Below, piece after piece: positions 589 through 62,239 of a DNA stretch of 64,000 nt. Origin of the DNA: Patescibacteria group bacterium UBA3466 (GTDB lineage Bacteria; Patescibacteriota; Minisyncoccia; Phycocordibacterales; UBA918); contig DFRJ01000001.1 of assembly GCA_002378195.1 (NCBI GenBank), positions 161,722 to 225,721 of the forward strand, read 5' to 3'. Within the stretch, counting starts at the first letter, position 1, and the number at the start of each line of letters is the position of its first letter. The position numbers and the translations under genes are program-made. Under the pieces are notes generated by a model. The model made no database searches. It was not told where the DNA came from and was given only the letters and a program-made list of their open reading frames with translations.

Positions 589-1128
589 TTAGTCATTCAT
601 TATTTCACCGATTTTCCTTACCGTGTTGATGTTGCGAGCGGTGAGTTTTTTATAAATGTCAGTTTTGATCACTTCATTCATTTTACTTTTTGAGTAGTCA
701 GCCTTCTTCACGCGCCATATTATTGCTCCCTCAAAGTATTGGGTCTTATCGACAGCCGGGTTCTTCTCGATTAGTTTTAAAGTTTCTTTCGATCTATATT
801 CATCCCACAGAAACCACACGTCAGTTTTGTACTCGCTGTCGTTCTTCCATGTGTGTGGTACGTGCTCAATTAAATTATCAATTTCTATCTGGCTACGCAA
901 AACTACCGGAATATTTAAATTAAAATCTCGAACAATAGTTGCTTCGATCTTTTGAATGACGTCCTTCTTACTCTTTGCTGTAGTGTCAAATATTACGTTT
1001 CCAGAATTGATGTAGGTAGTTACTTCTTTAAAACCAAGCTGCTCAAAAGAAGTTTTTAGCTCCCGCATGTCGATTTTATTATTGCCACCGACATTTATTC
1101 CTCTTAACAGCGCAACGTATGTAGCCAT
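589..1128 (-). CDS. DUF1697 family protein
   Basis: MATYVALLRGINVGGNNKI... matches the DUF1697 N-terminal signature. Internal Met chosen as start; the ORF extends to 1173 as an alternative start. Confidence 0.6.
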   Translation of the reverse strand: MATYVALLRGINVGGNNKIDMRELKTSFEQLGFKEVTTYINSGNVIFDTTAKSKKDVIQKIEATIVRDFNLNIPVVLRSQIEIDNLIEHVPHTWKNDSEYKTDVWFLWDEYRSKETLKLIEKNPAVDKTQYFEGAIIWRVKKADYSKSKMNEVIKTDIYKKLTARNINTVRKIGEIMND

Positions 1129-1167
1129 ATTAAAAATTGTATCAGAAGGCGTTGGTATAATTATGTT

Positions 1168-1704
1168 ATGCAAAAACCATTTATAGTATTTATTGACGGA
1201 CCAATGGGTTCAGGTAAAACAACCACCACAAAGTTACTCAATTCTGAGCTTCCAGATACAGCAAGGATCGCTTTTCCTGACATTAAGAGACTGGTTCCAA
1301 ATTACAGAGAAAACGAAATAACAATTTCAGTTATAAAAGAAGTGATGGCGGTTATGATTGAAAAATATTTGGAACATGGAGTGAGCGTGGTTGTAGAACA
1401 GATTACGAAACAAGAGGGTATTCACTCACTCAAAGACATTGCAGACAAGCATGGCGCTAGATTTTTTGCATACAGAATGAGCGCGCCAAAGGATGTGCGA
1501 TGGGAACGAGTTAAGGAGAGAACAAGGTTAATGATGAAAGTAGAAACCTTGTCCGAATCTAAAGTTGAGGAACTCCGTGGATACTTTGAACCTAACAACA
1601 AATTCTATGAGGACAACCCCTCGGACGTAAGTGTGGAAATTGATTCACTTGAAAACAACCCTAAACAAGTTGTTGAAATGATTAAGGAGAATTTATATTT
1701 GTAA
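1168..1704 (+). CDS. P-loop NTPase / nucleotide kinase-like protein
   Basis: Walker A motif GPMGSGKTT near the N-terminus; ~180 aa, the size of small kinases (AAA_33 or zeta-toxin-like). Confidence 0.5.
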   Translation: MQKPFIVFIDGPMGSGKTTTTKLLNSELPDTARIAFPDIKRLVPNYRENEITISVIKEVMAVMIEKYLEHGVSVVVEQITKQEGIHSLKDIADKHGARFFAYRMSAPKDVRWERVKERTRLMMKVETLSESKVEELRGYFEPNNKFYEDNPSDVSVEIDSLENNPKQVVEMIKENLYL

Positions 1705-1719
1705 AAATACTATATACTT

Positions 1720-2712
1720 TTGGATATGGAACCCCAACAAACAATTGAAACTCAAGAAATTGAGAAAGAATCAAATCTAAATAAAGTCACGCCACTATCA
1801 AAATATTTAGCCCTGCTACTTTTTGTTCTTTTACCGTTTATCGGAGGCTATATCGGTTATATGTATGCTCCGGTTAAGGTGGTTGAGGTTGAAAGGGGGG
1901 TCATTAGAGAGGAGGTAAGTGAGGAATTGATTGGTGTGTCCGACAATTCAAGTGCTAATACTCAGGTAGGAATTGAGGAACCTGATTCTGTTTTTGTCAT
2001 AGATGATTTAAATTCTGAAATAGAAGCTGAATTGATTCAAAATACCCTACGGTGGAGAGAGTGGAACCCCAAGTCTGATCGATGGAATGACTGGCACTCT
2101 TTTGTGGTCTCTAATCCAGATGAGCTTAAATATCTTGGTCTAGGTTTATTTACTGACAAGATTGAAATCTATCGACTGGATACAGTTGAAGCAATCTTTA
2201 TCCCTGACTCTATTCAGCTTGATCCAGCACTTGCTATCACGGTTTTCACAGAACAAGGAGAGGCGTTTATTGAGAATGGAGAGAGACTGTTTGTAAGTGT
2301 TCCAGTTATCATGACCGGCTCTAGTTTGGCTGAGCTACCAGGCTTTAGGAGAGCCGATTTGTTAGTACTTGGCTACGGATACATTACTGACGGCACCAAG
2401 TTGTATTCACTCGATGGTATTAATCAAAATGATCAGATACCGGCACTAGAGGGTGTTGATCCAGATAATTTCGATTTTTATTTAGTAAACAATTCTGACC
2501 ATCCCTCTAATGTATTTATTGTTAGTAAAAATAGAGTTTACTACCGAGATCTTTTGCTGGATGGTATTGATTTTGAAAACGCAGAGTTTCTGAATGGAAA
2601 TACGATAGTTAAGGATACAGACACAGTATGGTTTGCTAGTGGCGATTGTCATTATAAAACCTATAGGACAGGTTCGCTTGAAGAGATTGAGGGATACATT
2701 CCACCTTGCTAA
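1720..2712 (+). CDS. Hypothetical membrane-anchored protein
   Basis: 330-aa ORF with one N-terminal TM helix (LALLLFVLLPFIGGYIGYMY); no recognisable domain. Confidence 0.5.
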   Translation: MDMEPQQTIETQEIEKESNLNKVTPLSKYLALLLFVLLPFIGGYIGYMYAPVKVVEVERGVIREEVSEELIGVSDNSSANTQVGIEEPDSVFVIDDLNSEIEAELIQNTLRWREWNPKSDRWNDWHSFVVSNPDELKYLGLGLFTDKIEIYRLDTVEAIFIPDSIQLDPALAITVFTEQGEAFIENGERLFVSVPVIMTGSSLAELPGFRRADLLVLGYGYITDGTKLYSLDGINQNDQIPALEGVDPDNFDFYLVNNSDHPSNVFIVSKNRVYYRDLLLDGIDFENAEFLNGNTIVKDTDTVWFASGDCHYKTYRTGSLEEIEGYIPPC

Positions 2713-2721
2713 AAAATCAGT

Positions 2722-2925
2722 GTGCGCGATGAGAGATTTGGTCACCTTCACATCAATATTTTGTTCGACATAAAGTCTCCAAAATATTGTGTTACGCGAC
2801 CCCGGCGCTCGAATCGTCCTCGCTCCGCTCCGGGCGATATACTCGCTTTCTTCAAGTCCCTCACCACTCTGCATAATTTGAGACACAAGAAAAGCCGGAC
2901 CGATGTCCGACTGTTCTTGTGCTAG
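2722..2925. mobile_element. ~200-nt tRNA-associated element downstream of tRNA-Val, bounded by a partial copy of the tRNA-Val 3' end; homologous to the element at 15938-16152
   Basis: gcgcgatgagagatttg at 2735-2751 duplicates the tRNA-Val 3' end (gcgcgatgagagacttg at 2927-2943). Shared blocks with the His-linked element: ggtcacc, tattttg(t/c)ttcg, ctc(c/a)caaaata, ccgctccgg, gaatcgtcct. Confidence 0.45.
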
Positions 2926-2998
2926 TGCGCGATGAGAGACTTGAACTCCCGACCTTTTCGGTGTAAACGAACTGCTCTACCAACTGAGCTAATCGCGC
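2926..2998 (-). tRNA. tRNA-Val (anticodon TAC)
   Basis: Reverse complement GCGCGATTAGCTCAGTTGGTAGAGCAGTTCGTTTACACCGAAAAGGTCGGGAGTTCAAGTCTCTCATCGCGCA folds as a cloverleaf. 7-bp acceptor stem, anticodon loop TTTACAC, T-loop GTTCAAGT. Confidence 0.85.
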
Positions 2999-3017
2999 TT
3001 ATAAATAGTATGTTTTG

Positions 3018-3110
3018 GCTTCCAACACAAATATAGCTTAAGATGTCAGTTCGTTTACAGGTGTAAACGGTTCGAAAGTCTCCCAGACTTTCTCACTTCC
3101 ACCAACTTCG
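3018..3110 (+). pseudogene. Degenerate inverted tRNA-Val-like fragment
   Basis: The plus strand carries CAGTTCGTTTACA, identical to the tRNA-Val anticodon arm. GGTTCGAAAGTCTCCC resembles the T-arm and TCGTCGCGC the acceptor end. No intact D-arm or acceptor pairing. Confidence 0.35.
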
Positions 3111-3443
3111 TCGCGCTTAAATATTTGGTTGTAGGGGATATCCTACCGAATTTTTCAAAAAAAACAATAGGCTACTTTTAAAATAGTTAGAGCTCGCAAC
3201 TTGTGCGAGCTCGTACCCCTTCACCGTTTTGCCATCTGAATCTGAAATGGCAGATTAAAATAACGGGGTGGTTGAAATTTGGGTAGGTGACGTTTCCGAT
3301 TTTTGTTCGGAGACGGCCGACTTTCTGGTTCACCACCACGGTTATAGGTCCGGTGCTTATTTGCCAAATGAACTTCTCCTTGTTAGTGTGCCTATTTACT
3401 TTATAGACCGGTGTAGGGTCTGACGCAAGTTAACAGGTGTGAA

Positions 3444-3803
3444 TCATACCGCCTCAATAATCCCCGCCACACCGGTTTCAGTATTAGTTTCTGCCGGTAT
3501 GGCCGGAGAGGTGGCATGAAGTTTGAAGAGTCGACCTGGTTTGTCAACGCATAGCGTCAACGTATCTTTGCAGTCAGTGAAGACAAATTCTCCATTTCGC
3601 ACAAAGCCGAGTGAGATCTCAGCTGTGGTGTGGAAACTGATAGGTGAGCTGCAGCCCGTGAGATTGTCGATACTTCGAATTAGATATTCGACCCGACCAT
3701 CCCCAGCTTTTTTGACGGTAACGCCAACATGGCAGGTGACATTATGCAGGCAAATTTTCTTACCAGGGGAGGCAGTGATGTTGATCGGTTCACTAACGTA
3801 CAT
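3444..3803 (-). CDS. MOSC-like beta-barrel domain protein (putative)
   Basis: 119 aa; the segment GEFVFTDCKDTLTLCVDKPGRLFKLH resembles the MOSC block GDIF..ALIQVSQPRSPCYKL. Confidence 0.35.
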   Translation of the reverse strand: MYVSEPINITASPGKKICLHNVTCHVGVTVKKAGDGRVEYLIRSIDNLTGCSSPISFHTTAEISLGFVRNGEFVFTDCKDTLTLCVDKPGRLFKLHATSPAIPAETNTETGVAGIIEAV

Positions 3804-3925
3804 ATATTACTTCCTTTTGTTGACCAGAGGGTTGTTGTAGAACTACTTCACCAGCAACAATATAATAATATTTATATATGTCAAATATGTTGGTTTAGTG
3901 TTGGGCACAAGGTATACTGTCACGC

Positions 3926-4198
3926 ATGATCGAAATGCTAGCAGTCGTGACTGGTAAAGTGCAGAAAGTAGCCTACCGAGCTTATACCCAAGAATCGGCG
4001 ACCGAGTTAGGGATAGTAGGTAGTGTGCAAAATATGTCCAATGGCACAGTACAAGTAGTGGCTCAGGCTGAGCCTGATGTCTTGAAAGAGTTTGTGGAAT
4101 ACTTAAATGAAGGGTCACTAATGTCAGAAGTGGAAGGGGTGTCGGTCGAATGGCGCAGTGTATCCAAAACTTACGACGAATTTTCTTTGTTGCATTAA
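3926..4198 (+). CDS. acyP: Acylphosphatase
   Basis: 90 aa; GKVQKVAYRAYTQ...GIVGSVQNMSNGTVQVVAQ matches the acylphosphatase signature VQGVxFR...GWVRNxxDGxVE. Confidence 0.75.
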   Translation: MIEMLAVVTGKVQKVAYRAYTQESATELGIVGSVQNMSNGTVQVVAQAEPDVLKEFVEYLNEGSLMSEVEGVSVEWRSVSKTYDEFSLLH

Positions 4199-4201
4199 AA
4201 T

Positions 4202-4882
4202 ATGAACAAAACTTCAATCCAGTGCCTTGGCTTTATTATGGACGGCAATCGCCGTTGGGCGAAAGAAAAAAACCTGCCTACTTTAGAGGGTCATCGTAAG
4301 GGGCACGAGGTGTTCCTTGACTGCGTTCGCTTTGTTAGAGATCAGCATATCCCGCACGCAGTTTTTTATGCCTTTTCTACTGAGAATTGGAATCGTTCAG
4401 AAGAAGAGGTGGCGTATCTCATGCAGTTGTTCGCTCAAGTCATTGAAAATATCAAGAAAGGAGTAGATGAAGAGAGGGTGCGAGTGCGGATAGTTGGTAA
4501 TCGGTCTGACTTTTCAGAAGAACTGCAAACCGCTATGACAGAGTTGGAAGAAGATAGTGCCAAATATACAGAGACTACCATCTGGTTGGCGCTATCATAT
4601 GGAGGCCGAGCCGAAATAATCACGGCCGTTAATCAGGCGGTCGAAAACGGCACTAAAGTGACAGAAACAGATTTTCAAAAATTATTATGGACAGCTGATA
4701 TGCCTGATCCCGACATGATCGTGCGTACCAGCGGCGAACAGAGACTGTCTAATTTTTTGCCCTGGAATTCAGTTTATAGTGAATTCTTGTTTTTAGACAA
4801 ACACTGGCCCGCTTTGACCAAAAGTGATTTCGACGGCATACTCAATGAATATGAATCCAGAGACAGGCGAAAAGGTAAGTAA
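4202..4882 (+). CDS. uppS: Undecaprenyl pyrophosphate synthase (isoprenyl transferase)
   Basis: HLGFIMDGNRRWA near the N-terminus plus the central ENW and C-terminal RTSGEQRLSNFLPW motifs of cis-prenyltransferases. Confidence 0.9.
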   Translation: MNKTSIQCLGFIMDGNRRWAKEKNLPTLEGHRKGHEVFLDCVRFVRDQHIPHAVFYAFSTENWNRSEEEVAYLMQLFAQVIENIKKGVDEERVRVRIVGNRSDFSEELQTAMTELEEDSAKYTETTIWLALSYGGRAEIITAVNQAVENGTKVTETDFQKLLWTADMPDPDMIVRTSGEQRLSNFLPWNSVYSEFLFLDKHWPALTKSDFDGILNEYESRDRRKGK

Positions 4883-5621
4883 TGAACCAGCAGTATTGTT
4901 TGAGAACGATGATGTTGTTTTCATCAACAAGCCATACGGCTGGTTAACTCATGCGGATGGACATAATCAAACTGCACCGGTAGTGGTGGATTGGTTGTGC
5001 GCCAAGTACCCTGAAGCTAAGGGGGTTGGAGAGCCTGGCTACGCCAAAGATGGCTCGGAACTCGATCGATCGGGTATTGTGCACCGGCTTGATCGAGAAA
5101 CGTCTGGAGTGTTGGTGTTGGCAAAGAATCAACCTGCATACGAATTTCTCAAGGAACAATTTAAGGAACGGTTGGTACGCAAAGAGTACCGAGCGTTTGT
5201 GTATGGCCGGATGAATGATCGGTGGGGCACTATCAACCGACCAATCGGCCGTAGTGCCAAAGACTCTCGTCGTCGATCAGCTGAGCGGGGAGCCAAGGGT
5301 GTGCGTCGGGAGGCGATTACCGACTTTGAGCGAGTCGGGATGGGTGAGTATGATGGCGAACCTTTTTCTTATGTTAGATTGATCCCTAAAACTGGCCGCA
5401 CTCACCAGCTTCGAGTGCATTTACGCGCCATCGATCGTCCAATTGTTGGTGATGGTCTATATGCTGAGCATAAAATCCAAAAATCCAATAACTTATCGCT
5501 TGATAGGCTGGCTCTTCATGCCTATATTCTTGAATTGGCCCTCCCGAGTGGTGAAACCCACCGCGCTATGGCACCAGTTCCCCAAGAGTTTGAAATAGCG
5601 GCCGAGCGCATTGCAGAGTAA
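4824..5621 (+). CDS. RluA-family pseudouridine synthase
   Basis: VHRLDRETSGVLVLAKN catalytic-Asp motif and KEYRAFVYG block of the RluA/RluD family. Overlaps the uppS 3' end, so the true start is probably 4845 or 4851. Confidence 0.8.
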   Translation: MISTAYSMNMNPETGEKVSNEPAVLFENDDVVFINKPYGWLTHADGHNQTAPVVVDWLCAKYPEAKGVGEPGYAKDGSELDRSGIVHRLDRETSGVLVLAKNQPAYEFLKEQFKERLVRKEYRAFVYGRMNDRWGTINRPIGRSAKDSRRRSAERGAKGVRREAITDFERVGMGEYDGEPFSYVRLIPKTGRTHQLRVHLRAIDRPIVGDGLYAEHKIQKSNNLSLDRLALHAYILELALPSGETHRAMAPVPQEFEIAAERIAE

Positions 5622-5718
5622 CTAGTATTGTGGTAGATTGTGGCACGTTTTAAGGACCTTTTTATAAGGTCTTCTTTATTAAGAAACGACGCATTCAGAT
5701 TTATTAATTGTATTTATT

Positions 5719-6369
5719 ATGAAAGTAGCAATGGAGGGGGTTGAAGTATCTCCCGTAAACATGGAAGAACGTAAGTCACTTGGTATCCGAGCTGGAGACA
5801 CAGTGCGAGTTCACCAAAAAATTCAAGATAAAGGTAAGACCAGAATTCAGATTTTTGAAGGTTTGGTTCTTGCTCGTAAGCATGGTAATGAACCAGGAGC
5901 GACCTTCACTGTACGAAAGGTGGCTAGTGGAGTAGGGGTGGAAAAGATTTTCCCACTGTATTCACCACTTATCGATAAGCTAGAAATCGTTAAGCGCGCT
6001 AAAGTGCGACAATCTAAGTTGTACTACATTCGTGAGAAGGTTAATCGAGAGATTAAGCGACAAATGCGTCGAATGCACCTAGTTGCTCTCGCAACCGAAT
6101 CTGAAGCTGAGGCAGAAGTTCGAAAGGCTGAGGAAGCTAAGAAAGCTGAAGAAGAAGCCGCTCGCGTAGCTGAAGAGGAAGCCAAGAAGGCAGAGGAGGC
6201 TGCAGCCAAAGAGGCGGAAGCAGCTCCAGCAGAAGCACCGGCTGAAGAGTCTGCTGATGAAAATACTGAAGAAGCTGCCGAAGAGGCGGCGCCAGTGGTA
6301 GAAGAAGCAGCTGAAGAAACTCCAGTAGAAGACAAGAAGGAAGAGACTGAAGAAGAAAAAAAGGATTAG
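5719..6369 (+). CDS. rplS: Ribosomal protein L19 with ~100-aa C-terminal E/A/K-rich low-complexity extension
   Basis: AGDTVRVHQKIQDKGKTRIQIFEGLVLARKHGNEPGATFTVRKVASGVGVEKIFPLYSP aligns with bacterial L19. The tail is EAEAEVRKAEEAKKAEEEAARVAEEEAKKAEE... Confidence 0.85.
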   Translation: MKVAMEGVEVSPVNMEERKSLGIRAGDTVRVHQKIQDKGKTRIQIFEGLVLARKHGNEPGATFTVRKVASGVGVEKIFPLYSPLIDKLEIVKRAKVRQSKLYYIREKVNREIKRQMRRMHLVALATESEAEAEVRKAEEAKKAEEEAARVAEEEAKKAEEAAAKEAEAAPAEAPAEESADENTEEAAEEAAPVVEEAAEETPVEDKKEETEEEKKD

Positions 6370-6375
6370 GTTAAA

Positions 6376-6410
6376 TAAAAAGCCGGCGCCCTACGGGCGC
6401 CGGCTTTTTA
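6376..6410 (+). terminator. Rho-independent terminator (GC-clamp family: aaaaagccggcgccc-tac-gggcgccggcttttt)
   Basis: Perfect 12-bp GC stem followed by a T-run, immediately after rplS. Confidence 0.8.
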
Positions 6411-6463
6411 TTTACTTGAACAATATAAGTGCTTCAGGCATAATGGCTCGCACCAATCGATAT

Positions 6464-6548
6464 GTCTACGTGGCGGAATTGGTAGACGCGCTACCTTGAG
6501 GGGGTAGTGAGCATTATGCTCGTGCTGGTTCAACTCCAGTCGTAGACA
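6464..6548 (+). tRNA. tRNA-Leu (anticodon GAG), class II with long variable arm
   Basis: GTCTACG-TG-GCGGAATTGGTAGACGCG-CTACC-TTGAGGG-GGTAG-TGAGCATTATGCTCG-TGCTGGTTCAACTCCAGT-CGTAGAC-A gives the expected acceptor, D, anticodon (TTGAGGG) and T arms plus a long variable arm. Confidence 0.85.
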
Positions 6549-6589
6549 CAAATTAAGACGCCTTCGGGCGTTTTTAATTTGTGTCTACG
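6541..6589 (+). terminator. Long hairpin/terminator after tRNA-Leu. A 16-bp outer stem includes the tRNA 3' acceptor strand, around an inner gacgcc-ttcg-ggcgtt stem plus T-run.
   Basis: cgtagacacaaattaa...ttaatttgtgtctacg inverted repeat enclosing acgccttcgggcgttttt. Confidence 0.6.
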
Positions 6590-6795
6590 AAGAAAGCAAA
6601 CTGCTTTGCTTTCGTCTGGAGTTAAAAGACGGAACGATGTGAGTGTGCGAACAAGTGAGTCGGGGTCGAAAGCACTTGGTAGATTTGTTGCGAAGCAATA
6701 AATATACTTAGTGACTTGTGGCCAACGTAGGGAGTAGACATACAAATTAAACGAGGCGATATCTCCGATATCGCCTCGTTTGCTATACTACCGAC

Positions 6796-7251
6796 ATGAA
6801 AGCAATCAAAGATACTTCATATGGGGTGATTCCGGTCAGACGAGCGGGAGATTCATTCGAAGTGTTTCTCATCCATCAATATAGTCGCATTGGAAATAAT
6901 ACTTACTGGGTTTTTCCCAAAGGACACCCTGAAGCCGGGGAAACTCCAGAAGAAACGGCTAGACGTGAACTCAAAGAAGAAACTGACATGTTGGCTGATA
7001 AATTAATAAGGGATCCAGTTTTTAAGCTGCAATATAGCTTTCACTACGACGGTAATCTAATTGATAAGACTGTAGTATTCTTCCTTGGCCTGGTTTCCCA
7101 AATTGAATACCAGCTAGACCCAGAAGAAGTGAAAGAAGCGGGCTGGTACTCCCTCGCAGATGCTAAAAAACGACTAGACTACAGTGATACAAAACAGATG
7201 TTCTCCGAAGTAACAAATTTTCTGGCAAGCCAATCCGCACTTGAAATATAA
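6796..7251 (+). CDS. NUDIX hydrolase
   Basis: Nudix box GHPEAGETPEETARRELKEETD (GX5EX7REUXEEXGU). Confidence 0.85.
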   Translation: MKAIKDTSYGVIPVRRAGDSFEVFLIHQYSRIGNNTYWVFPKGHPEAGETPEETARRELKEETDMLADKLIRDPVFKLQYSFHYDGNLIDKTVVFFLGLVSQIEYQLDPEEVKEAGWYSLADAKKRLDYSDTKQMFSEVTNFLASQSALEI

Positions 7252-9321: not shown

Positions 9322-10737
9322 TTAGTTCATCTGTTCTTTCTCTTGTAAAAAGACCTCCTTCGCTTTCTTGTAGGTTTCCATCGTGCGGTGGTAGCTCATC
9401 TTTTGGTCGACGAGTGGGGCAGGGTAATCAGGAGCGAGTGTGCTGAAGTTTTGAGTTTTGCCATCAGTGAGAAGTGAGGCGTCTACCTCTGACAGTTCAG
9501 GAATCCATTTCTTAATATACTCAGCATCTTTATCGTAGTTTACTGCCTGTGTGTACGGGTTAAAGATTCTTAGTGGACGCGGGTCAGCGCCCGTTGACGC
9601 GCTCCATTGCCAGCCACCATTATTTTGACAGGGATCATAATCAATTAATTTTTGGGCAAAATATTTTTCACCCCACTGCCAATTGATAAGGAGATTTTTG
9701 GTAAGGTAGGAGGCAACCACCATACGTGAACGATTATGCATCCAGCCGGTTTTATTTAGCTCGCGCATACCAGCGTCGACCATCGGCACACCGGTTTTGC
9801 CTTCACACCAAGCTTCAAACTGTTCCTCGTCATTAATCCACTCGAGGTGCTTGGCCCACGGCAGGAAAGAGTTTTTGAATACCTGAGGGAAGTGATAAGT
9901 GATATAGAAATAAAAGTCGCGCCAGTATAGTTCTGAAATAAAATGACAACCGATGCCCGAGTGTTCTTTAGCAGTATGGAAACTTTCGCGAATCGAAATT
10001 GTGCCAAATTTATGATGAGCGGATAGTTTCGAGGTGCCGTTGTCGGCCGGGAGGTTGCGTCGATCTTTGTAGTTATTAAGGTACTGGTTTTTATTGAGAA
10101 TCGCGAGACCTTCTTCGCGTCCACCCTGAATCACGTAGTCTTCATTTTTAGGAAGGAGATAGTCTTCCAGTGCCACTAGTTCGGTCTTAAGTGCACTACT
10201 AAAATAATTATCAAAATTATTTTTGCGTGGTTTAGGTACTTCATTTTGAATTGCGTTCTTCATGAACGGAGTGTAGACGGTGTAGACCTTGTCCTGACCG
10301 GTGCGAATAGTTTCGATTGGACTGAGCGCCACATCATCAAGCCTGAAAAGGGGTACTTCCACTGCTTTACACACATCATTAATTTCGCCATCACGTTTTC
10401 GAGAGAAGGGAGTGTAGTCCTTGTTTACATACACAGCCTCCACCTGGTCGTTTTCGATGAGTGATTTTACGACTAATTCAGGCTGACCATGAGCGACGTG
10501 TAATTGCGAGCCACGGTTTTTGAGTGCTTCATCAAGTTCGGCGAGGGAGTTAAGCATGAAGTAGAAAGCGGGGGAGCTAAAAAACTCATTCTCTTTCTTA
10601 TTAATTTGTCGGTCATCAAATATAAATAAAGGCACCACTTCTTCCGAGTTTTCCAAGGCAGCTAACAAGCCGAGGTTGTCTTCCAGTCGCAGATCTCGCC
10701 TGAAAATAAAAACCGATCTTTTATAGGTTTTATCCAT
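9322..10737 (-). CDS. phr: Deoxyribodipyrimidine (CPD) photolyase
   Basis: N-terminal RSVFIFRRDLRLEDN and C-terminal FAD-binding block (GWMHNRSRMVVASYL, DYDPCQNNGGWQW) typical of class I CPD photolyase/cryptochrome. Confidence 0.85.
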   Translation of the reverse strand: MDKTYKRSVFIFRRDLRLEDNLGLLAALENSEEVVPLFIFDDRQINKKENEFFSSPAFYFMLNSLAELDEALKNRGSQLHVAHGQPELVVKSLIENDQVEAVYVNKDYTPFSRKRDGEINDVCKAVEVPLFRLDDVALSPIETIRTGQDKVYTVYTPFMKNAIQNEVPKPRKNNFDNYFSSALKTELVALEDYLLPKNEDYVIQGGREEGLAILNKNQYLNNYKDRRNLPADNGTSKLSAHHKFGTISIRESFHTAKEHSGIGCHFISELYWRDFYFYITYHFPQVFKNSFLPWAKHLEWINDEEQFEAWCEGKTGVPMVDAGMRELNKTGWMHNRSRMVVASYLTKNLLINWQWGEKYFAQKLIDYDPCQNNGGWQWSASTGADPRPLRIFNPYTQAVNYDKDAEYIKKWIPELSEVDASLLTDGKTQNFSTLAPDYPAPLVDQKMSYHRTMETYKKAKEVFLQEKEQMN

Positions 10738-15877: not shown

Positions 15878-15960
15878 ACTGACAGTAGGCACTAAAAACA
15901 CCATCTAAATATGTTGCTAAATATAGCTTCTTAAAATGGGCGGCTACCGGGAATCGTCCT
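15878..15960. repeat. Repeat R2 ending in a partial copy of the tRNA-His 3' end (ggcggctaccgggaatcg)
   Basis: Matches tRNA-His 3' segment ggcgactaccgggaatcg at 16153-16172 in 17/18 positions; the left part is homologous to R1. Confidence 0.6.
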
Positions 15961-16152
15961 GACGGTCACCAAGTTATTTTGCTTCGTTTCCTCACAAAAT
16001 AACTGGTGCCGCGGGACACACCTCGCTTGTTCGTCATCCTTCCTCACACCGCTCCGGCGTTCGATTCCTGACGCGAGCAAAGCAGTTTGCTCGCTGTATC
16101 CGCCGTCACCAAATCAAAACACTCCCAAAAGGGAGTGTTTTGATTTGCCGAT
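15938..16152. mobile_element. ~200-nt tRNA-associated element between a partial tRNA-His 3'-end copy and tRNA-His; homologous to the element downstream of tRNA-Val
   Basis: Same block order as 2722-2925 (ggtcacc, tattttgcttcg, ctcacaaaata, ccgctccgg); contains a terminator hairpin caaaacactccc-aaaa-gggagtgttttg at 16118-16146. Confidence 0.45.
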
Positions 16153-16226
16153 GGGCGACTACCGGGAATCGAACCCGAACTGCCGGTACCACAAACCGGT
16201 GCACTAACCGTTATACTATAGTCGCC
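16153..16226 (-). tRNA. tRNA-His (anticodon GTG) with encoded G-1
   Basis: Reverse complement G-GCGACTA-TA-GTAT-AACGGTTA-GTGC-A-CCGGT-TTGTGGT-ACCGG-CAGT-TCGGG-TTCGATT-CCCGG-TAGTCGC-C. G-1 and C73 are bacterial tRNA-His identity features. Confidence 0.8.
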
Positions 16227-34294: not shown

Positions 34295-37200
34295 ATGTCT
34301 GATATACATAAACAATCTAATATGAATAACAAGAATGATGGTCGCGTAAGCGACAAGGTAAAAGTGGTTGACGCTAAGCCTGCTTCTGAAGTGGCCAGGC
34401 GAGAAGAGGACATGCAAGCCTTTTGGGTTGAGCATGACATTTTTAATAAAACCTTAGAGACTCCAGCTGGCAATGAGCCAGACGGGGATTTTGTTTTTTA
34501 TGACGGTCCACCATTTGCCACCGGAGCACCTCACTACGGACACCTACTACAAAGCGCTCTCAAAGATGCCATTCCACGCTTTTGGACCATGAACGGCAAG
34601 CGGGTGCGTCGCCAGTGGGGGTGGGATTGTCACGGATTGCCGGTTGAGAATTTGATTGAAAAGAAATTGGGACTAGCCACCAAGAAGGATATTGAAGATT
34701 TTGGAGTAAAAAACTTTAACGAAGAAGCGCGTAATACCGTCATGGAGTACGCTGATGATTGGCGACAAATCGTGCCGCGCATGGGTCGGTTTGTTGATAT
34801 GGAAAATGACTACAAGACCATGGACAGTACCTACACCGAAAGTGTGTGGTGGGTGTTTAAGTCACTACATGAAAAAGGTTTGGTGTATGAAGGTTTTAAG
34901 ACTATGCATCTTTGTCCACGCTGTGGTACGACCTTGTCCAACTTCGAGGTGAATCAGGGTTATAAGGACATCAAGGATTTATCGGTGTTTGTTGAGTTGC
35001 CACTAATAGATGAAGCGGCTTCGCTGATAGTCTGGACGACTACTCCGTGGACTCTGCCGGGCAACATCGCCGCTGCAGTACATAAAGACATTGAGTATGC
35101 TCGAGTTAAGCTGACCGAAGATGATGGGGAAAAGACCGTGATCTTAGCCAAGGATCGGATTGAAGCTGTGCTTGGACAAAAGACTTTTGAAATCATCGGC
35201 ACTTACCAAGGGTCTGAACTGATCGGCAAGCAGTATCAGCCACCTTTTGATTATCATCAAAAGGAAGAGTTTGACGGAAAAGAAAATTGCTGGACGATTT
35301 ACCACGCCGATTATGTTGAGGTCGGTGAAGAAGGTAGTGGTATTGTGCACATTGCAGCTGCGTATGGAGAAGATGACATGAATTTGGCCAAAGAGAATGG
35401 GGTGCCAATCCGGCACCATGTCAATGAATCCGGCCATTTTATGGATTTTGTTACTGACTTTGCAGGTCTGCTGGTAAAGCCAAAAGATGACAAGACAGCC
35501 GATATCAATCATATGGACACCGATATCGAGATCATTCGCGCTTTGGCACAAAAAGGTGTGTTATTTGGTAAGGAAAAAATTACTCACAGCTATCCGCATT
35601 GTTGGCGTTGTGAGACACCGCTTCTGAATTACGCCACCACCTCTTGGTTTGTTGAAGTGACCAAGTTACGCAGTGAGTTATTGGCTGCAAACGCCGAGGT
35701 AGATTGGGTGCCAGAACATGTAGGGAAGAATCGCTTTGGAAAGTGGCTTGAGGGTGCGCGCGACTGGGCAGTGTCACGACAGCGTTATTGGGGAGCACCT
35801 TTACCGATCTGGAAAAATCCGGACACAAACGAGGTGCATGTCATTGGTGGGCTCGAAGAGCTAAAGAAATTAGTGAAAACTAGTGGCAATCAGTATGTAC
35901 TAATGCGCCACGGTGAGAGTGAAAGTAATATCAAAGGTATCATTAGCTGCAACAAAGCAAATGTTGACGGACTGACTGATAAAGGTAAAGAGCAGGCGAC
36001 AACGTCAGCTGCAAAGCTAGAAGATATCGATGTGATTATTCATTCAGGCTTCCAGCGCACCAAAGAGACGGCTGAAATTGTGGCCGCCCGTTTTCCTGGC
36101 GTCGAACTAATTGAAGATGATCGGATTCGTGAACTTGACCTGAGTGATGATTTTGAAGGTCAGACTTGGAAAGAGTACAACGCCAGCTTTGGTACTTGGG
36201 AAGAAAAGTTTAAAAAAGAATTGGTTGGTTCCGAAAACCGCCTAGACGTACAAAAGCGTATGGGAGAGTTCTTGTACGATCTGGATAAGCGCTATGCCGA
36301 CAAGAAGATTTTGATTGTCAGTCACGCCGGCCCATTGTTTGCTCTTGAGTGTGCAATTGACGGCTTGAATATCGAACAGTCAAAAAGCTACTTCGCTGAC
36401 GGAGCGGCCTACTTCAACAACGCTGAAGTGCGCACGCCAGATTTTTGTCCACTACCGCATAATGATAATTATGAACTTGATTTCCATCGTCCATACATAG
36501 ATGAGGTGGAATTATATGATGGGGGAGTGCGACTTTTGCGCGTACCGGATGTGTTTGATTGTTGGTTTGAATCTGGCTCAATGCCGTACGCTCAAAATCA
36601 CTATCCATTCTCGTGTGATCAAGAGGTGTTCCTGCAGCAACGATTCCCAGCGCAGTTTATTGGCGAAGGTTTAGATCAGACTCGTGGTTGGTTCTATTCA
36701 ATGATTGTGCTGGGAGTGGCTTTGTTCGGTAAGTCACCGTATGAAAACGTCGTAACAAATGGCTTGGTGCTGGCTGAAGATGGCCGGAAGATGAGTAAAT
36801 CATTACAGAATTATCCTGATCCAGTCGAGCTGATCAGTCAGGTGGGTGCCGATACCATTCGCTTTTATCTCCTGTCATCGTCATTGATAAGAGGGGAAGA
36901 TGTAAACTTTTCTGAGAAGGAGGTGCAAGAATTACAAAGAAAGAATATTGGTCGACTACACAATGTGCTGGTGATGTACCAGATGTTTGCGGATGGCACT
37001 GAGGCGGCCGACAATTCAGACCATGTGCTAGACCGATGGGTGGTAGCTCGCCTGAATCAATTGGTTGCTGAAGTGACAGCAGGTTATGAAAATTATGAGC
37101 TCGATAAAGCCACTCGACCAATTACTGATTTTATTGATGACCTGTCAGTATGGTACTTGCGTCGTAGTCGCGATCGTCTTAAAAGTGATGATGAGAAAGA

Positions 37201-37834
37201 CAAGGCTTTGGCACTTAGCACCTTGCGCTATGTGCTACAAAATCTTGCTTTAGTGATGGCTCCAGTGATGCCGTTTTACGCAGAATTTCTGTGGCAAGCG
37301 GTTAAAGAAGAAACTGAGGCTGAAAGCGTGCACTTAGGTCGGTGGCCAAAAACGACGAAGATTGATGAGTCGGTGGTGGTTGATATGTTGGCGACCAGAA
37401 CTATCGTAACCGAGGCGCTAGAGGCGCGGACTACGGCTGGGATTAAGGTGCGTCAACCAATTCAGGCTGTTTTCGGCCCGAAACTAGCAGCTGAGCTGTC
37501 AGCTATAGTGGTTGAAGAACTTAATGCCAAAGAGTACCAAGAGGCCGAGACTGTAAAGATTGATACTGAGCTGACCGCGGAGCTTTTGTCTGAAGGAGCG
37601 GTGCGAGAACTCATGCGAGCGGTGCAGGGAAATAGAAAGCAGGCCGGGCTGCAGCCAGACGACGAAATTACCCTCACTATCCAAGCAGATGAAGCTAGCA
37701 AACAGGCGGTGGAGACCCACGAGGAGCTTTTGGTAAGAACAGTAGGAGCAAGCGAGCTAGCATTTGCTGAGGTTACTGGGGAAGAGGTGCAAGCTGGAGA
37801 TTATAAGTTTGTCTTTACCATTAAGACTGCCTAG
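34295..37834 (+). CDS. ileS: Isoleucyl-tRNA synthetase carrying an inserted histidine-phosphatase (phosphoglycerate-mutase-like) domain
   Basis: HIGH (PFATGAPHYGHLL), editing-domain TTPWTLPGN and KMSKS motifs are all present. Between IWKNPDTNEVHVIGG and DFHRPYIDEV lies a ~200-aa block with the histidine-phosphatase motifs LMRHGESESN and ILIVSHAGP. Confidence 0.85.
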   Translation: MSDIHKQSNMNNKNDGRVSDKVKVVDAKPASEVARREEDMQAFWVEHDIFNKTLETPAGNEPDGDFVFYDGPPFATGAPHYGHLLQSALKDAIPRFWTMNGKRVRRQWGWDCHGLPVENLIEKKLGLATKKDIEDFGVKNFNEEARNTVMEYADDWRQIVPRMGRFVDMENDYKTMDSTYTESVWWVFKSLHEKGLVYEGFKTMHLCPRCGTTLSNFEVNQGYKDIKDLSVFVELPLIDEAASLIVWTTTPWTLPGNIAAAVHKDIEYARVKLTEDDGEKTVILAKDRIEAVLGQKTFEIIGTYQGSELIGKQYQPPFDYHQKEEFDGKENCWTIYHADYVEVGEEGSGIVHIAAAYGEDDMNLAKENGVPIRHHVNESGHFMDFVTDFAGLLVKPKDDKTADINHMDTDIEIIRALAQKGVLFGKEKITHSYPHCWRCETPLLNYATTSWFVEVTKLRSELLAANAEVDWVPEHVGKNRFGKWLEGARDWAVSRQRYWGAPLPIWKNPDTNEVHVIGGLEELKKLVKTSGNQYVLMRHGESESNIKGIISCNKANVDGLTDKGKEQATTSAAKLEDIDVIIHSGFQRTKETAEIVAARFPGVELIEDDRIRELDLSDDFEGQTWKEYNASFGTWEEKFKKELVGSENRLDVQKRMGEFLYDLDKRYADKKILIVSHAGPLFALECAIDGLNIEQSKSYFADGAAYFNNAEVRTPDFCPLPHNDNYELDFHRPYIDEVELYDGGVRLLRVPDVFDCWFESGSMPYAQNHYPFSCDQEVFLQQRFPAQFIGEGLDQTRGWFYSMIVLGVALFGKSPYENVVTNGLVLAEDGRKMSKSLQNYPDPVELISQVGADTIRFYLLSSSLIRGEDVNFSEKEVQELQRKNIGRLHNVLVMYQMFADGTEAADNSDHVLDRWVVARLNQLVAEVTAGYENYELDKATRPITDFIDDLSVWYLRRSRDRLKSDDEKDKALALSTLRYVLQNLALVMAPVMPFYAEFLWQAVKEETEAESVHLGRWPKTTKIDESVVVDMLATRTIVTEALEARTTAGIKVRQPIQAVFGPKLAAELSAIVVEELNAKEYQEAETVKIDTELTAELLSEGAVRELMRAVQGNRKQAGLQPDDEITLTIQADEASKQAVETHEELLVRTVGASELAFAEVTGEEVQAGDYKFVFTIKTA

Positions 37835-61499: not shown

Positions 61500-62033
61500 T
61501 TGGATTTAACTAATAAAATTATGTCAGACGAGAAAGACACAGCAGTAGTAGAAGAAACTACTGAAGAGACTGCAGCTCCTGAAGCGGCAGCAGAAGAAAC
61601 TAAGGAAGAAGCTCCAGCTGAAGAAGCGGCTTCAGAATCAGATGTTGATGAATCAGTTGAAGTGCCAGCAGAATTCGCTGCTCTAGTGGAGCAAGTAGAA
61701 AAGATGTCAGTGCTTGAACTACATGAACTAGTTAAGGTTCTAGAAAAGCGCTTTGGCGTTTCAGCTTCTGCAGTAGCAGTAGCAGGACCAGCAGCTGGCG
61801 GTGACGCTGGAGGCGAAGAACAATCAGAATTTACTGTTGAACTAGCTGACGCTGGAGCACAAAAGATTGCTGTTATTAAGGCAGTGAAGGAAGCTTGTGG
61901 TCTTGGTCTTAAGGAGGCTAAGGAAATGGTAGATGGAGCACCAGCAGAAGTTAAGGCTGGTCTGAAGAAGGAAGATGCTGAAGCTCTAAAGGCGAAATTG
62001 GAGGAAGCTGGAGCGACTGTAAATCTTAAATAG
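61500..62033 (+). CDS. rplL: Ribosomal protein L7/L12 with ~50-aa acidic N-terminal extension (or internal GTG start)
   Basis: Canonical L12 begins at [24 protein letters not shown]...; C-terminal domain [27 protein letters not shown]. The upstream 50 aa are E/T/A-rich. A GTG start at the Val of VPAEF would give a canonical-length L12. Confidence 0.85.
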
Positions 62034-62201
62034 TTTTAAGATTTAAGTCACTGCTCCAGGGGCGGAGACATGTCGCGCGGAACGTAAGTGAGCACGACGG
62101 TCGAGCCGGGGTCGCGAGCCCAGAAAATAACATCGTATATTTTCTGAGGACTTGTGACGGAGCTACAGTAAACCTTAAGTAATCACTTACTTAGGTAGCA
62201 T

Positions 62202-62239
62202 AAAAAAGCAGCGCCCACGTACGTGGGCGCTGCTTTTTT
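62202..62239 (+). terminator. Rho-independent terminator
   Basis: aaaaaagcagcgccc-acgtacgt-gggcgctgctttttt. Confidence 0.85.

Follow-up and report, generated by a model that had tools for sequence, protein, structure and literature searches.

Elements behind tRNA genes and rplL

The DNA analysed here (the window) is a stretch of 64,000 nucleotides (nt) from Patescibacteria group bacterium UBA3466 (contig DFRJ01000001.1, positions 161,722 to 225,721); all coordinates are those of the window, and L-numbers denote loci of relatives or of metagenomes. It is a chromosomal segment of a marine population of the Paceibacteria/Kaiserbacteria kind, has housekeeping genes throughout, occurs also in Tara Oceans contigs and in two deposited assemblies, and has its nearest genomes, judged by ribosomal protein L19, among the Parcubacteria/Paceibacterota metagenome-assembled genomes. 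ARAGORN predicts three tRNA genes in the window: tRNA-Val(tac) (2925-2998, minus strand), tRNA-Leu(gag) (6464-6549, plus strand), and tRNA-His(gtg) (16153-16225, minus strand). Behind each of them lies a small repeat-bounded element, and a fourth lies behind the ribosomal-protein gene rplL. The elements measure 110 to 190 nt, contain no open reading frame (ORF), and follow one plan in all four copies: the gene end (T), an optional terminator (S), an inverted copy of the target (T'), a folded core, and a second, direct copy of T. The tRNA-Arg(tct) gene of this genome, just outside the window, is followed by a terminator only and carries no element. Two covariance models are cited below: R1, built from such elements, and R2, which covers the core only.

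An earlier sequence-only reading had described the first of these elements as a segment of about 200 nt, separated from tRNA-Val by a terminator, bounded by a duplicated tRNA-Val 3' end, and homologous to a segment behind tRNA-His. The duplication is borne out by a repeat search as a 19-nt direct repeat (2722-2740, GTGCGCGATGAGAGATTTG, versus 2925-2943, ending in GAGAGACTTG) with 18 of 19 positions identical; the outer limits of 2722-2998 were right, while the inner repeat had been placed at 2735-2751, about 13 nt off, and the distance of 192 nt should read 203 nt from start to start. All parts lie on the minus strand. The tRNA gene (67 bits with the Rfam tRNA model) supplies the proximal T with its last 19 nt (2925-2943), and the terminator is indeed present, as an inverted-repeat hairpin at 2884-2921 containing a terminator-like site with a T tail (2912-2893). 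The T' arm (2850-2873) is a degenerate inverted tRNA-Val 3' end, of which 2851-2863 is 92% complementary to 2933-2945, and in the predicted fold it pairs with the distal copy, several G.U pairs included. The core (2741-2849; R1 60.7 bits) is of a divergent type A, with an extra small hairpin, a CCGGAGCGG junction, and a P4 hairpin ending in GGTGAC. The distal copy (2722-2740) runs from T-loop C56 to 1 nt beyond the discriminator base.

The His element, also on the minus strand, is bounded by a direct repeat of 21 nt (15936-15956 versus 16151-16171, 20 of 21 identical in the repeat search), its proximal T being 16152-16171 and its distal copy of the tRNA-His 3' end 15937-15956; the latter has a C at position 69, like the tRNA-His of relatives. 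Between them lie the terminator hairpin (16111-16146, with the inverted repeat 16103-16126/16131-16154), the T' arm (16059-16104), and a type A core (15957-16058; R2 40 bits, E 3.6e-6; R1 83.9 bits). The T' arm here is in two parts, 16096-16104 and 16059-16071, on either side of an inserted hairpin, Pins (16072-16095). The Leu element, on the plus strand, has the same arrangement: T' (6581-6628) consists of part 1 (6581-6589), Pins (6590-6614), and part 2 (6615-6628), and in both copies the splitting hairpin has 8 to 10 bp and the identical apex AGCAAACTGCTTTGCT. Its proximal T is the last 19 nt of the tRNA-Leu gene (6531-6549), followed by the terminator (6550-6580, with a terminator-like site at 6555-6574), which together with its flanks and the tRNA end forms a perfect extended hairpin of 17 bp (6540-6556/6574-6590, 100% complementary). 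Inside the element the repeat search shows the inverted copy of the tRNA end as 6529-6542 versus 6613-6626. The type A core (6628-6722; R2 61.8 bits, E 1.9e-10; R1 97.4 bits) comprises helix P2a, a GGA/GA internal loop, and hairpins P3 and P4; it is followed by a distal, partly decayed copy of the tRNA-Leu 3' end (6723-6741) and a second terminator (6749-6781).

At rplL, on the plus strand, sequence comparison places the proximal T at the last eight codons including the stop (62010-62033). The T' arm (62034-62060; local alignment score 30) starts directly behind the stop codon and is the reverse complement of the last ca. 26 nt of the reading frame. It leads into a type A core (62061-62158; R2 match 62061-62159, 46.2 bits, E 2.2e-7), a direct repeat of rplL's final 24 nt (62159-62182, GGAGCTACAGTAAACCTTAAGTAA), and a terminator of native type (62202-62239). 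Further copies, which the sequence-only reading proposed to look for beside tRNA genes, do exist, the third after tRNA-Leu and the fourth after rplL, with hundreds in public metagenomes (see below). Neither of these two copies figured in that reading, nor did the inverted, target-complementary arm, which is the key feature of the elements.

Two properties of the tRNA genes themselves may be added: none of the three encodes a full CCA end, and the intrinsic terminators behind them have an A-tract upstream and a T-tract downstream, so that they look bidirectional.

A conserved folded core

The proposed homology of the Val and His segments goes beyond chance, the single model R1 matching both (E ~1e-17 and ~1e-24, respectively). 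Five ordered sequence blocks had been named as shared. Four of them are collinear and structural: ggtcacc forms the 3' strand of helix P4, ccgctccgg corresponds to the CGGAG junction motif, and tattttg and caaaata are the two strands of the P4 hairpin. The fifth, gaatcgtcct, is not collinear, lying within the core in Val (2812-2821) and overlapping the distal tRNA copy in His (15952-15961).

Whole elements fold well beyond shuffled sequence (z = -7.3 for Val and -8.9 for His, with a further value of -5.3). MAFFT alignment and RNAalifold on whole elements recovered nothing but a T-stem-like helix; the core structure was drawn up manually from 14 copies aligned over the core only. The core so defined has a length of ca. 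90 to 110 nt and consists of a 3-bp P2a, an internal loop (5'-GGA/3'-GA), hairpin P3, which is variable, two Gs, and the long P4 hairpin with the base GGUCG/UGACC, ending in GUGAC; the sequence motifs CGGAG..CGAG..GGGGUC..GUGAC are conserved. In the 14-copy alignment 92.3% of the cells are paired, against 73% in shuffles and 28 to 38% when the partners are slid, and 10 of the 13 core pairs have changed on both sides. Among 102 distinct metagenomic cores the paired share is 98.9%, against 84.3% in shuffles, with the base of P4 fixed by the pattern that retrieved them. The check for covariation that had been suggested therefore turned out strongly positive in the core helices, and the conserved thing is a single-strand structure rather than the duplex "arm-type sites" of the sequence-only reading. 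It is the upstream gene's sense strand that folds, being more stable than its complement in 20 of 21 elements and richer in G.U pairs (63, against 32).

Rfam 15 at its gathering thresholds reported tRNAs only and no match on the elements, its models of self-cleaving ribozymes, group II introns, and tRNA-like RNAs included; taken by E-value (E <= 10) for window positions 2600-7000 and for L034, L032, and L026, it gave tRNAs and terminator look-alikes only. Phage and plasmid collections searched by blastn in a distant mode contained no match to the elements, two pattern scans of viral contigs returned only chance matches in GC-rich phages, none of them linked to a tRNA, and the literature that we searched yielded no description of such elements. 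Judged by sequence and covariation, this is a new family of structured nucleic acids with more than 100 members and good covariation that is absent from Rfam, and this holds even on a conservative reading. The fold itself we take, with moderate confidence, to be a recombination or targeting module.

P3 and P4 very frequently have GCGAAGC, GCAAAGC, GTGAAGC, or GAGCGACGGCGA at their tips, with G-A/A-G on the flanks (for instance GCGAAGC at 6685-6691 in the window, and in L032, L034, and L012). GCGAAGC is an extraordinarily stable DNA mini-hairpin, and such tips may hint at a folded DNA strand rather than at RNA.

A fixed junction and displaced gene ends

The direct repeat starts at T-loop C56 in all 26 evaluable tRNA cases, the proximal junction reading ..GGTT/C and the distal one ..GTGAC/C (the slash marks the start of the repeat). 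In the same 26 cases the complementarity of T' extends exactly 2 nt beyond the repeat (T54 and T55) and is followed by one unpaired base and then by P2a. This 2-nt rule is found also at rplL (CT), at the topoisomerase gene topA in L253 (TA), and in L228, whose crossover falls on the last three tRNA bases instead of the T loop. Given this fixed place of the crossover between P4, P2a, and the T':T helix, we argue that core and T' are built around the recombination point.

The protein-coding targets give the strongest evidence for insertion with replacement of the gene end. The distal rplL copy differs from the proximal one at 5 of 24 nt, all five being third codon positions (P = 0.0003, permutation), and both copies encode GATVNLK and a stop, so that all five differences are synonymous. 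At topA, identified by the Zn_ribbon_Top1 repeats of the upstream ORF, the two repeats of ca. 65 nt that were compared have 20 and 23 nt differences, 16 of 20 and 16 of 23 of them at third positions, and keep 19 of 22 and 17 of 21 amino acids (P < 5e-5). Since synonymous divergence builds up only while both copies serve as real gene ends, and hence in different lineages, one of the two copies must have been imported. The four closest rplL orthologues (proteins 90 to 96% identical) all represent empty sites, with the stop codon, 15 to 25 nt, and a terminator; the distal rplL copy of the window, the 19 nt behind it, and its terminator have the same layout. The end of rplL in the window is moreover a mosaic, its nearest relative switching exactly at the repeat boundary: in the 24 nt before the boundary L327 agrees at 23 of 24 positions and L329 at 16, and in the last 24 nt L327 agrees at 16 of 24 and L329 at 22. 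A true target-site duplication by staggered cuts, as made by Cas1 or transposases, was rejected on these grounds, namely the mostly synonymous divergence of the copies and the mosaic end of rplL.

T' agrees with the proximal copy at all seven discriminating positions in the tRNA cases, and does so in rplL and in topA of L253 as well; the replacement gene end (T_el) and T' therefore travel together. Many tRNA-linked loci have a second terminator behind the distal copy, which is to be expected if the distal copy and its terminator are the displaced native gene end. The elements are insertions that replace gene ends, and we state this with high confidence. The attL/attR-type signature of integration that the sequence-only reading had recognised accordingly holds, and it is firmed by the displaced, still coding ends of rplL and topA and by the empty rplL sites of four relatives.

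Mobility is indicated also by arrays, cargo, and exchange of arms. Behind a metagenomic tRNA-Arg(tct) (L228, ca. 9574-9927, minus strand) stand 3.3 perfectly identical tandem units of 134 nt, each with a terminator, a 9-nt T', and a core; other tandem arrays occur in L032 (His), L034 (Ser), and L051 (Glu). Between T_el and T' some copies carry genes, none of them a recombinase: an ArsR-family regulator, a thioredoxin-like protein, and an ArsP-type permease in L051, DUF3750 in L035, an IGPS-like ORF in L221, and others. At the tRNA-Glu of L051 (10738-13114) two short elements precede the 1.9-kb cargo and a third element follows it, and all three terminate in tRNA-Glu 3'-end copies (at +132, +353, and +2280 nt), with cores of a further, more divergent type. 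Cores at tRNA-Ser and tRNA-Ala that are ca. 93% identical have wholly different arms.

A different kind of insertion is seen in L031 (2914-3940), where a 0.9-kb islet behind tRNA-Ser(gct) has the tRNA 3' end (gttcgaatccctccgtctccgc) on both sides, as a direct repeat of 22 nt without mismatch. It holds one ORF of 257 aa without a Pfam match, and no folded core, so tRNA 3' ends here also take up integrase-less islets of another kind.

Occurrence in relatives and metagenomes

In the 26 L19-linked loci of related Paceibacteria, R1 finds the element after many tRNAs (Val, Leu, His, Ser, Arg, Glu); at least two types of core, A and B, occur among them, as do further variants. In other relatives the orthologous tRNAs have no element, or a T' remnant only. 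The element is kept between the window and L012, from a species with an 85% identical L19, while the flanking terminators cannot be aligned. Scanning of metagenome contigs with a 22-base pattern gave at least 120 loci, and R2, run on the first 100, found 109 cores in them. Of these, 73 lie downstream of a tRNA on the same strand within 260 nt (median 66 nt), covering 18 amino-acid specificities, and the remainder follow tmRNA-like 3' ends, cargo genes, or topA, stand at contig starts, or belong to tandem arrays. The orientation follows the upstream gene at all loci (more than 100). With rplL, topA, and tmRNA-like ends among the targets, "tRNA-targeting" is too narrow a definition of the element.

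In L011 (Val), L017 (His), and L016 (Leu) a T' stands alone directly behind the terminator, with neither core nor distal copy; such cases are either remnants of element deletion or the result of a palindrome extension that occurs at terminators by itself. In L007 (3400-4300) a contig with an identical L19 switches inside tRNA-Leu to AT-rich DNA with S10 and tRNA-Thr, -Ala, and -Ser; this is most probably a chimera made during assembly, where the tRNA sequence is conserved.

Proposed mode of insertion

Of the three options offered by the sequence-only reading, the "small non-autonomous element" fits best. We consider it probable, with real room for doubt, that the elements are non-autonomous, integrase-less integrative mini-elements of Patescibacteria, forming an undescribed family in which T' and core act as a module served by a recombinase in trans. 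The mobile unit consists of T_el, the optional intrinsic terminator S, T', and core, in this order, where T_el is a replacement copy of the last 17 to 75 nt of the target gene and T' an inverted copy, complementary to the sense strand of the target and spanning the crossover point. Conserved genes are entered at their 3' ends, with Campbell-type topology and at a crossover position that is fixed: in tRNAs it falls between T55 and C56, and it is always 2 nt inside the stretch complementary to T' and directly abuts the end of P4. After insertion the functional gene end is the one supplied by the element, with the native end and its own terminator displaced to the far side as the distal repeat. 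T' and core would then be the module of target recognition and recombination, on which an enzyme encoded elsewhere would act. The module may take either of two forms, a folded single-stranded DNA attachment site like integron attC or the attP hairpin of CTX phage, or a guide-plus-scaffold RNA. The first is suggested because the parts of an integrated element follow one another as they do in CTX-phage integration (sense, spacer, inverted, core, sense) and because the conservation of structure rather than sequence recalls attC; the second, because T' matches the intact target including the 2 nt that the element's own junction lacks.

Several observations weigh against such insertion by an enzyme in trans. 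No recombinase, reverse transcriptase, or transposase, and thus no tyrosine integrase of the kind that the sequence-only reading had proposed to seek, was found among the window ORFs from 1 to 46 kb or in the cargo segments, and the 503 ORFs within 3 kb of the 109 metagenomic cores, when clustered, gave no recombinase cluster and, apart from a small cluster described below, only housekeeping neighbours; because of this the enzymatic step is one that we wholly infer. There is no empty allele within the population, the 23 contigs covering L19 and the 23 covering rplL being identical, and no excised form was seen; the sampled population is clonal over all four elements, which counts against current activity. 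The agreement of T' with the proximal copy could, for tRNA targets, also arise since only the distal copy is free to mutate. The invariance of the P4 base among the metagenomic cores is by construction, as the retrieval pattern fixes it. The elements are old, as their presence in both the window and L012 attests, and their structure is kept by compensatory changes, a pattern that an RNA of benefit to the host would produce as well. Finally, the matching of T_el and T' to a new target is left without explanation; palindrome extension by template switching across the terminator hairpin might achieve it, which we offer as a suggestion only.

One group of ORFs near the metagenomic elements may be mentioned here. 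A cluster of ca. 225 aa, with an N-terminal helix-turn-helix (HTH) and a LAGLIDADG-like motif (..GLALYWAEGYK..), is found in L214, L215, L208, L209, and L265, directly upstream of the element-bearing tRNA in two loci and just downstream of the element in two. Pfam recognises only the HTH, and the LAGLIDADG-like motif is not confirmed by it; from its sequence this could be a candidate free-standing homing-endonuclease-like gene.

Alternative explanations

That the elements are a cis-acting structured RNA encoded by the host in the 3' trailer or 3' untranslated region of highly expressed genes, with a role in processing, stability, or insulation and not itself mobile, is a reading that we consider quite unlikely, even though much in the data suits it. 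The closing helix would then stem from local duplication of the gene end, and the module would be transcribed by read-through, comparable to plant-mitochondrial t-elements or to tRNA-like 3' modules. The constant co-orientation with the upstream gene at more than 100 loci, the better fold of the sense strand with its G.U pairs, and the strong covariation all accord with it; the rplL copy precedes the only terminator and must be part of the rplL transcript; behind tRNAs the closing helix repeats the acceptor and T stems; and the element has been kept between the window and L012, whose flanking terminators cannot be aligned. The "trailer ncRNA family" (noncoding RNA) among the earlier options keeps some probability, since the sense strand is the folding strand and the active single strand could be RNA; it is not the reading that we favour. 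In most tRNA cases a strong intrinsic terminator separates gene and element, with no promoter-like site on the sense strand. Local duplication followed by drift would not make the distal rplL and topA copies diverge almost only synonymously, nor does it sit well with the mosaic end of rplL and the missing element in all four closest relatives, with the patchy distribution, the tandem arrays, and the cargo-bearing variants. A closing helix, besides, could have any sequence, and a copy of the target plus 2 nt points to a mechanism of insertion. Very improbable, and largely refuted, is the view that the elements are inert scars, that is, larger tRNA-integrated prophages or islands reduced by internal deletion to attL, attR, and some arm sequence. 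Direct repeats of a tRNA 3' end are the classic signature of such events, small repeat-flanked islets without a core exist in relatives (L031), and partial remnants with T' alone occur (L011 Val, L017 His). Against this stand the constant size and architecture, the covarying core that recurs independently at over 100 loci and in over 20 target genes, the identical junction geometry in 26 of 26 cases, and the lack of any similarity to phages or plasmids and of any integrase remnant in what we saw; the "integration scar" of the sequence-only reading is hence given up in favour of a conserved unit.

Unlikely, too, is a variant in which T' and core are specifically an RNA, a 5' guide of 17 to 25 nt on a scaffold of ca. 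100 nt, that programs a recombinase or transposase whose gene lies elsewhere, much as IS110 bridge RNAs or the omega/right-end RNAs of IscB/TnpB do, so that targets are chosen by base pairing and can be reprogrammed. It would account for a T' that is complementary across the crossover and ends 2 nt beyond it and 1 nt before P2a alike at tRNA, rplL, topA, and trailer targets, for near-identical cores with different arms at different targets, for the fold on the sense strand, and for a range of target sequences so diverse that a single sequence-specific integrase could hardly serve them. No associated protein gene was found beside any copy, however, and none of the guide scaffolds known to Rfam matches. 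After insertion attL would still be matched by the guide; the integrated T' is paired with the distal or the proximal copy; the GCGAAGC and GCAAAGC tips, unusually stable as DNA mini-hairpins, hint at a folded DNA strand; and known RNA-guided recombinases leave duplications of 2 to 5 bp, not a replaced gene end of 17 to 75 nt.

Further candidates were dropped. A tRNA-like RNA (a mimic of acceptor and T arms, a t-element, or a tmRNA-like molecule) fails as a general explanation on the rplL and topA copies, which have no tRNA-like helix. Plant-mitochondrial t-elements and mascRNA mimic the acceptor stem and the T arm with its T loop and are processed by RNase P and RNase Z; the tRNA-linked copies have both stems in their closing helix, but with paired T-loop bases and with the core in place of the loop. 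The primer-binding site of a tRNA-primed retroelement is excluded by a T' that matches the genomic trailer and not CCA. Hammerhead-like or H/ACA-like guide topologies were rejected as well, the junctions with inserted hairpins having no conserved catalytic or box motifs. Single-strand transposons of the IS200/IS605 type do not agree with the lack of a replication-strand bias (two copies per strand under a uniformly positive GC skew of the window), and group II introns fail on a defining feature, in that no Rfam covariance model matches.

Comparison with known systems

The comparisons in this section draw on generally known features of tyrosine-integrase elements, integron attC sites, CTX phage and its relatives, IS110, and IscB/TnpB. 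Tyrosine-integrase elements (prophages, islands, and integrative and conjugative elements, of the T-loop class) likewise insert in Campbell fashion into the 3' parts of tRNA, tmRNA, and some protein genes, restore the gene end, leave a direct repeat from the T loop to the gene end, and form tandem arrays at one tRNA. They are several kb in size with an integrase beside the att site, whereas the present elements have 110 to 190 nt and none in or near them, and here a single core family serves more than 20 targets. A classical attP has neither an inverted target copy nor a covarying single-strand fold; the present elements have both. With integron attC sites they share a non-coding module of similar length (there ca. 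60 to 140 nt), a conserved structure with one folding strand, imperfect inverted repeats that close a variable centre, a crossover at the base of the folded stem, attachable cargo genes, and, as proposed here, an enzyme in trans. In contrast to attC, the arms here copy the chromosomal target and replace its end, many conserved genes are entered instead of one platform, and core sequence motifs are conserved, so the fit is by analogy only. No core site of the form RYYYAAC/GTTRRRY was seen on reading the element ends (..GUGAC/C.. and ..GGTT/C..), for which no dedicated pattern search was made, and neither intI nor attI was found in the loci examined, which do not cover whole genomes. The integrative mobile elements exploiting Xer (IMEX) of the CTX-phage kind, which use the host Xer recombinases and whose attP is made of two inverted att-like sites folded in single-stranded DNA, have an identical integrated topology and a hairpin stem that mimics the chromosomal target duplex. 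They target dif, while here the targets are tRNA, tmRNA-like, rplL, and topA ends and the stems have no site of XerC/D type; the present elements also have 100 to 200 nt and no genes, and their T' matches the intact target 2 nt past the crossover and not their own junction.

MITEs (miniature inverted-repeat transposable elements) and the palindrome-associated transposable elements (PATEs) derived from IS200/IS605 are likewise small, non-coding, and repeated, with inverted repeats and hairpins, and would be mobilised in trans. In MITEs the terminal inverted repeats are constant within a family, whereas the arms here equal the local target and differ from copy to copy. MITEs make a short target-site duplication of fixed length, in contrast to the repeats of 17 to 75 nt with coding-constrained divergence found here, and PATEs have a replication-linked orientation, in contrast to one that follows the target gene. 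Elements of the IS200/IS605 kind also insert 3' of a short fixed motif and make no duplication, unlike the long repeats here. IS110 bridge RNAs, which come from the non-coding end of an element with a DEDD/serine recombinase gene, and the omega/right-end guide RNAs of IscB/TnpB resemble our elements as structured non-coding modules of ca. 100 to 200 nt that are complementary to the target in a fixed geometry to the crossover. The differences are that there is no adjacent recombinase or nuclease ORF here and no Rfam match, and that the complementarity is much longer, 17 to 25 nt in one block (sometimes split by a hairpin). IS110 duplicates a 2-nt core, unlike the long replaced gene end seen here, though the end of T' does sit 2 nt from the start of the repeat.

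Other genes of the window

Side observations from the window concern four regions. An isoleucyl-tRNA synthetase-like ORF of 1179 aa (34295-37834, plus strand) has a His_Phos_1 domain (residues 535-698) between the halves of its class I catalytic domain, and such a histidine-phosphatase insertion is unusual for an aminoacyl-tRNA synthetase. L19 (5719-6369, 216 aa) has a long, charged, low-complexity C-terminal tail rich in K and E, and L7/L12 (61521-62033, 170 aa) a long, charged, low-complexity N-terminal stretch rich in E and A. Beside the tRNA-Val region are a small kinase ORF resembling zeta toxin/AAA_33 (1168-1704, plus strand) and a DUF1697 ORF (589-1173, minus strand).

Implications

It is possible, though we would put it forward only tentatively, that in these elements one half of a programmable, base-pairing-directed system of integration comes into view. 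The core would be bound by a protein whose gene lies elsewhere in Patescibacteria genomes; this protein would use T' (as RNA or as folded single-stranded DNA) to find complementary gene ends and would exchange strands exactly 2 nt inside the paired region, the retargetable module being only ca. 130 nt long. Such a system would differ from IS110 bridge RNAs, CRISPR-associated transposons, and integron attC sites. The fixed geometry and the target-complementary arm point to pairing or target mimicry and not to a sequence-specific integrase, which would be of interest to genome engineers.

If the interpretation as integrase-less mini-elements is correct, the candidate phyla radiation would harbour a widespread class of mobile DNA of very small size. 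Its members would enter essential, conserved genes (tRNA, tmRNA, rplL, topA) at their ends and leave them undamaged, would have no enzyme of their own, and could carry cargo. They would explain part of the intergenic "dark matter" beside the tRNA genes of these reduced genomes, and would provide a route of gene flow between episymbiotic bacteria that take up DNA.

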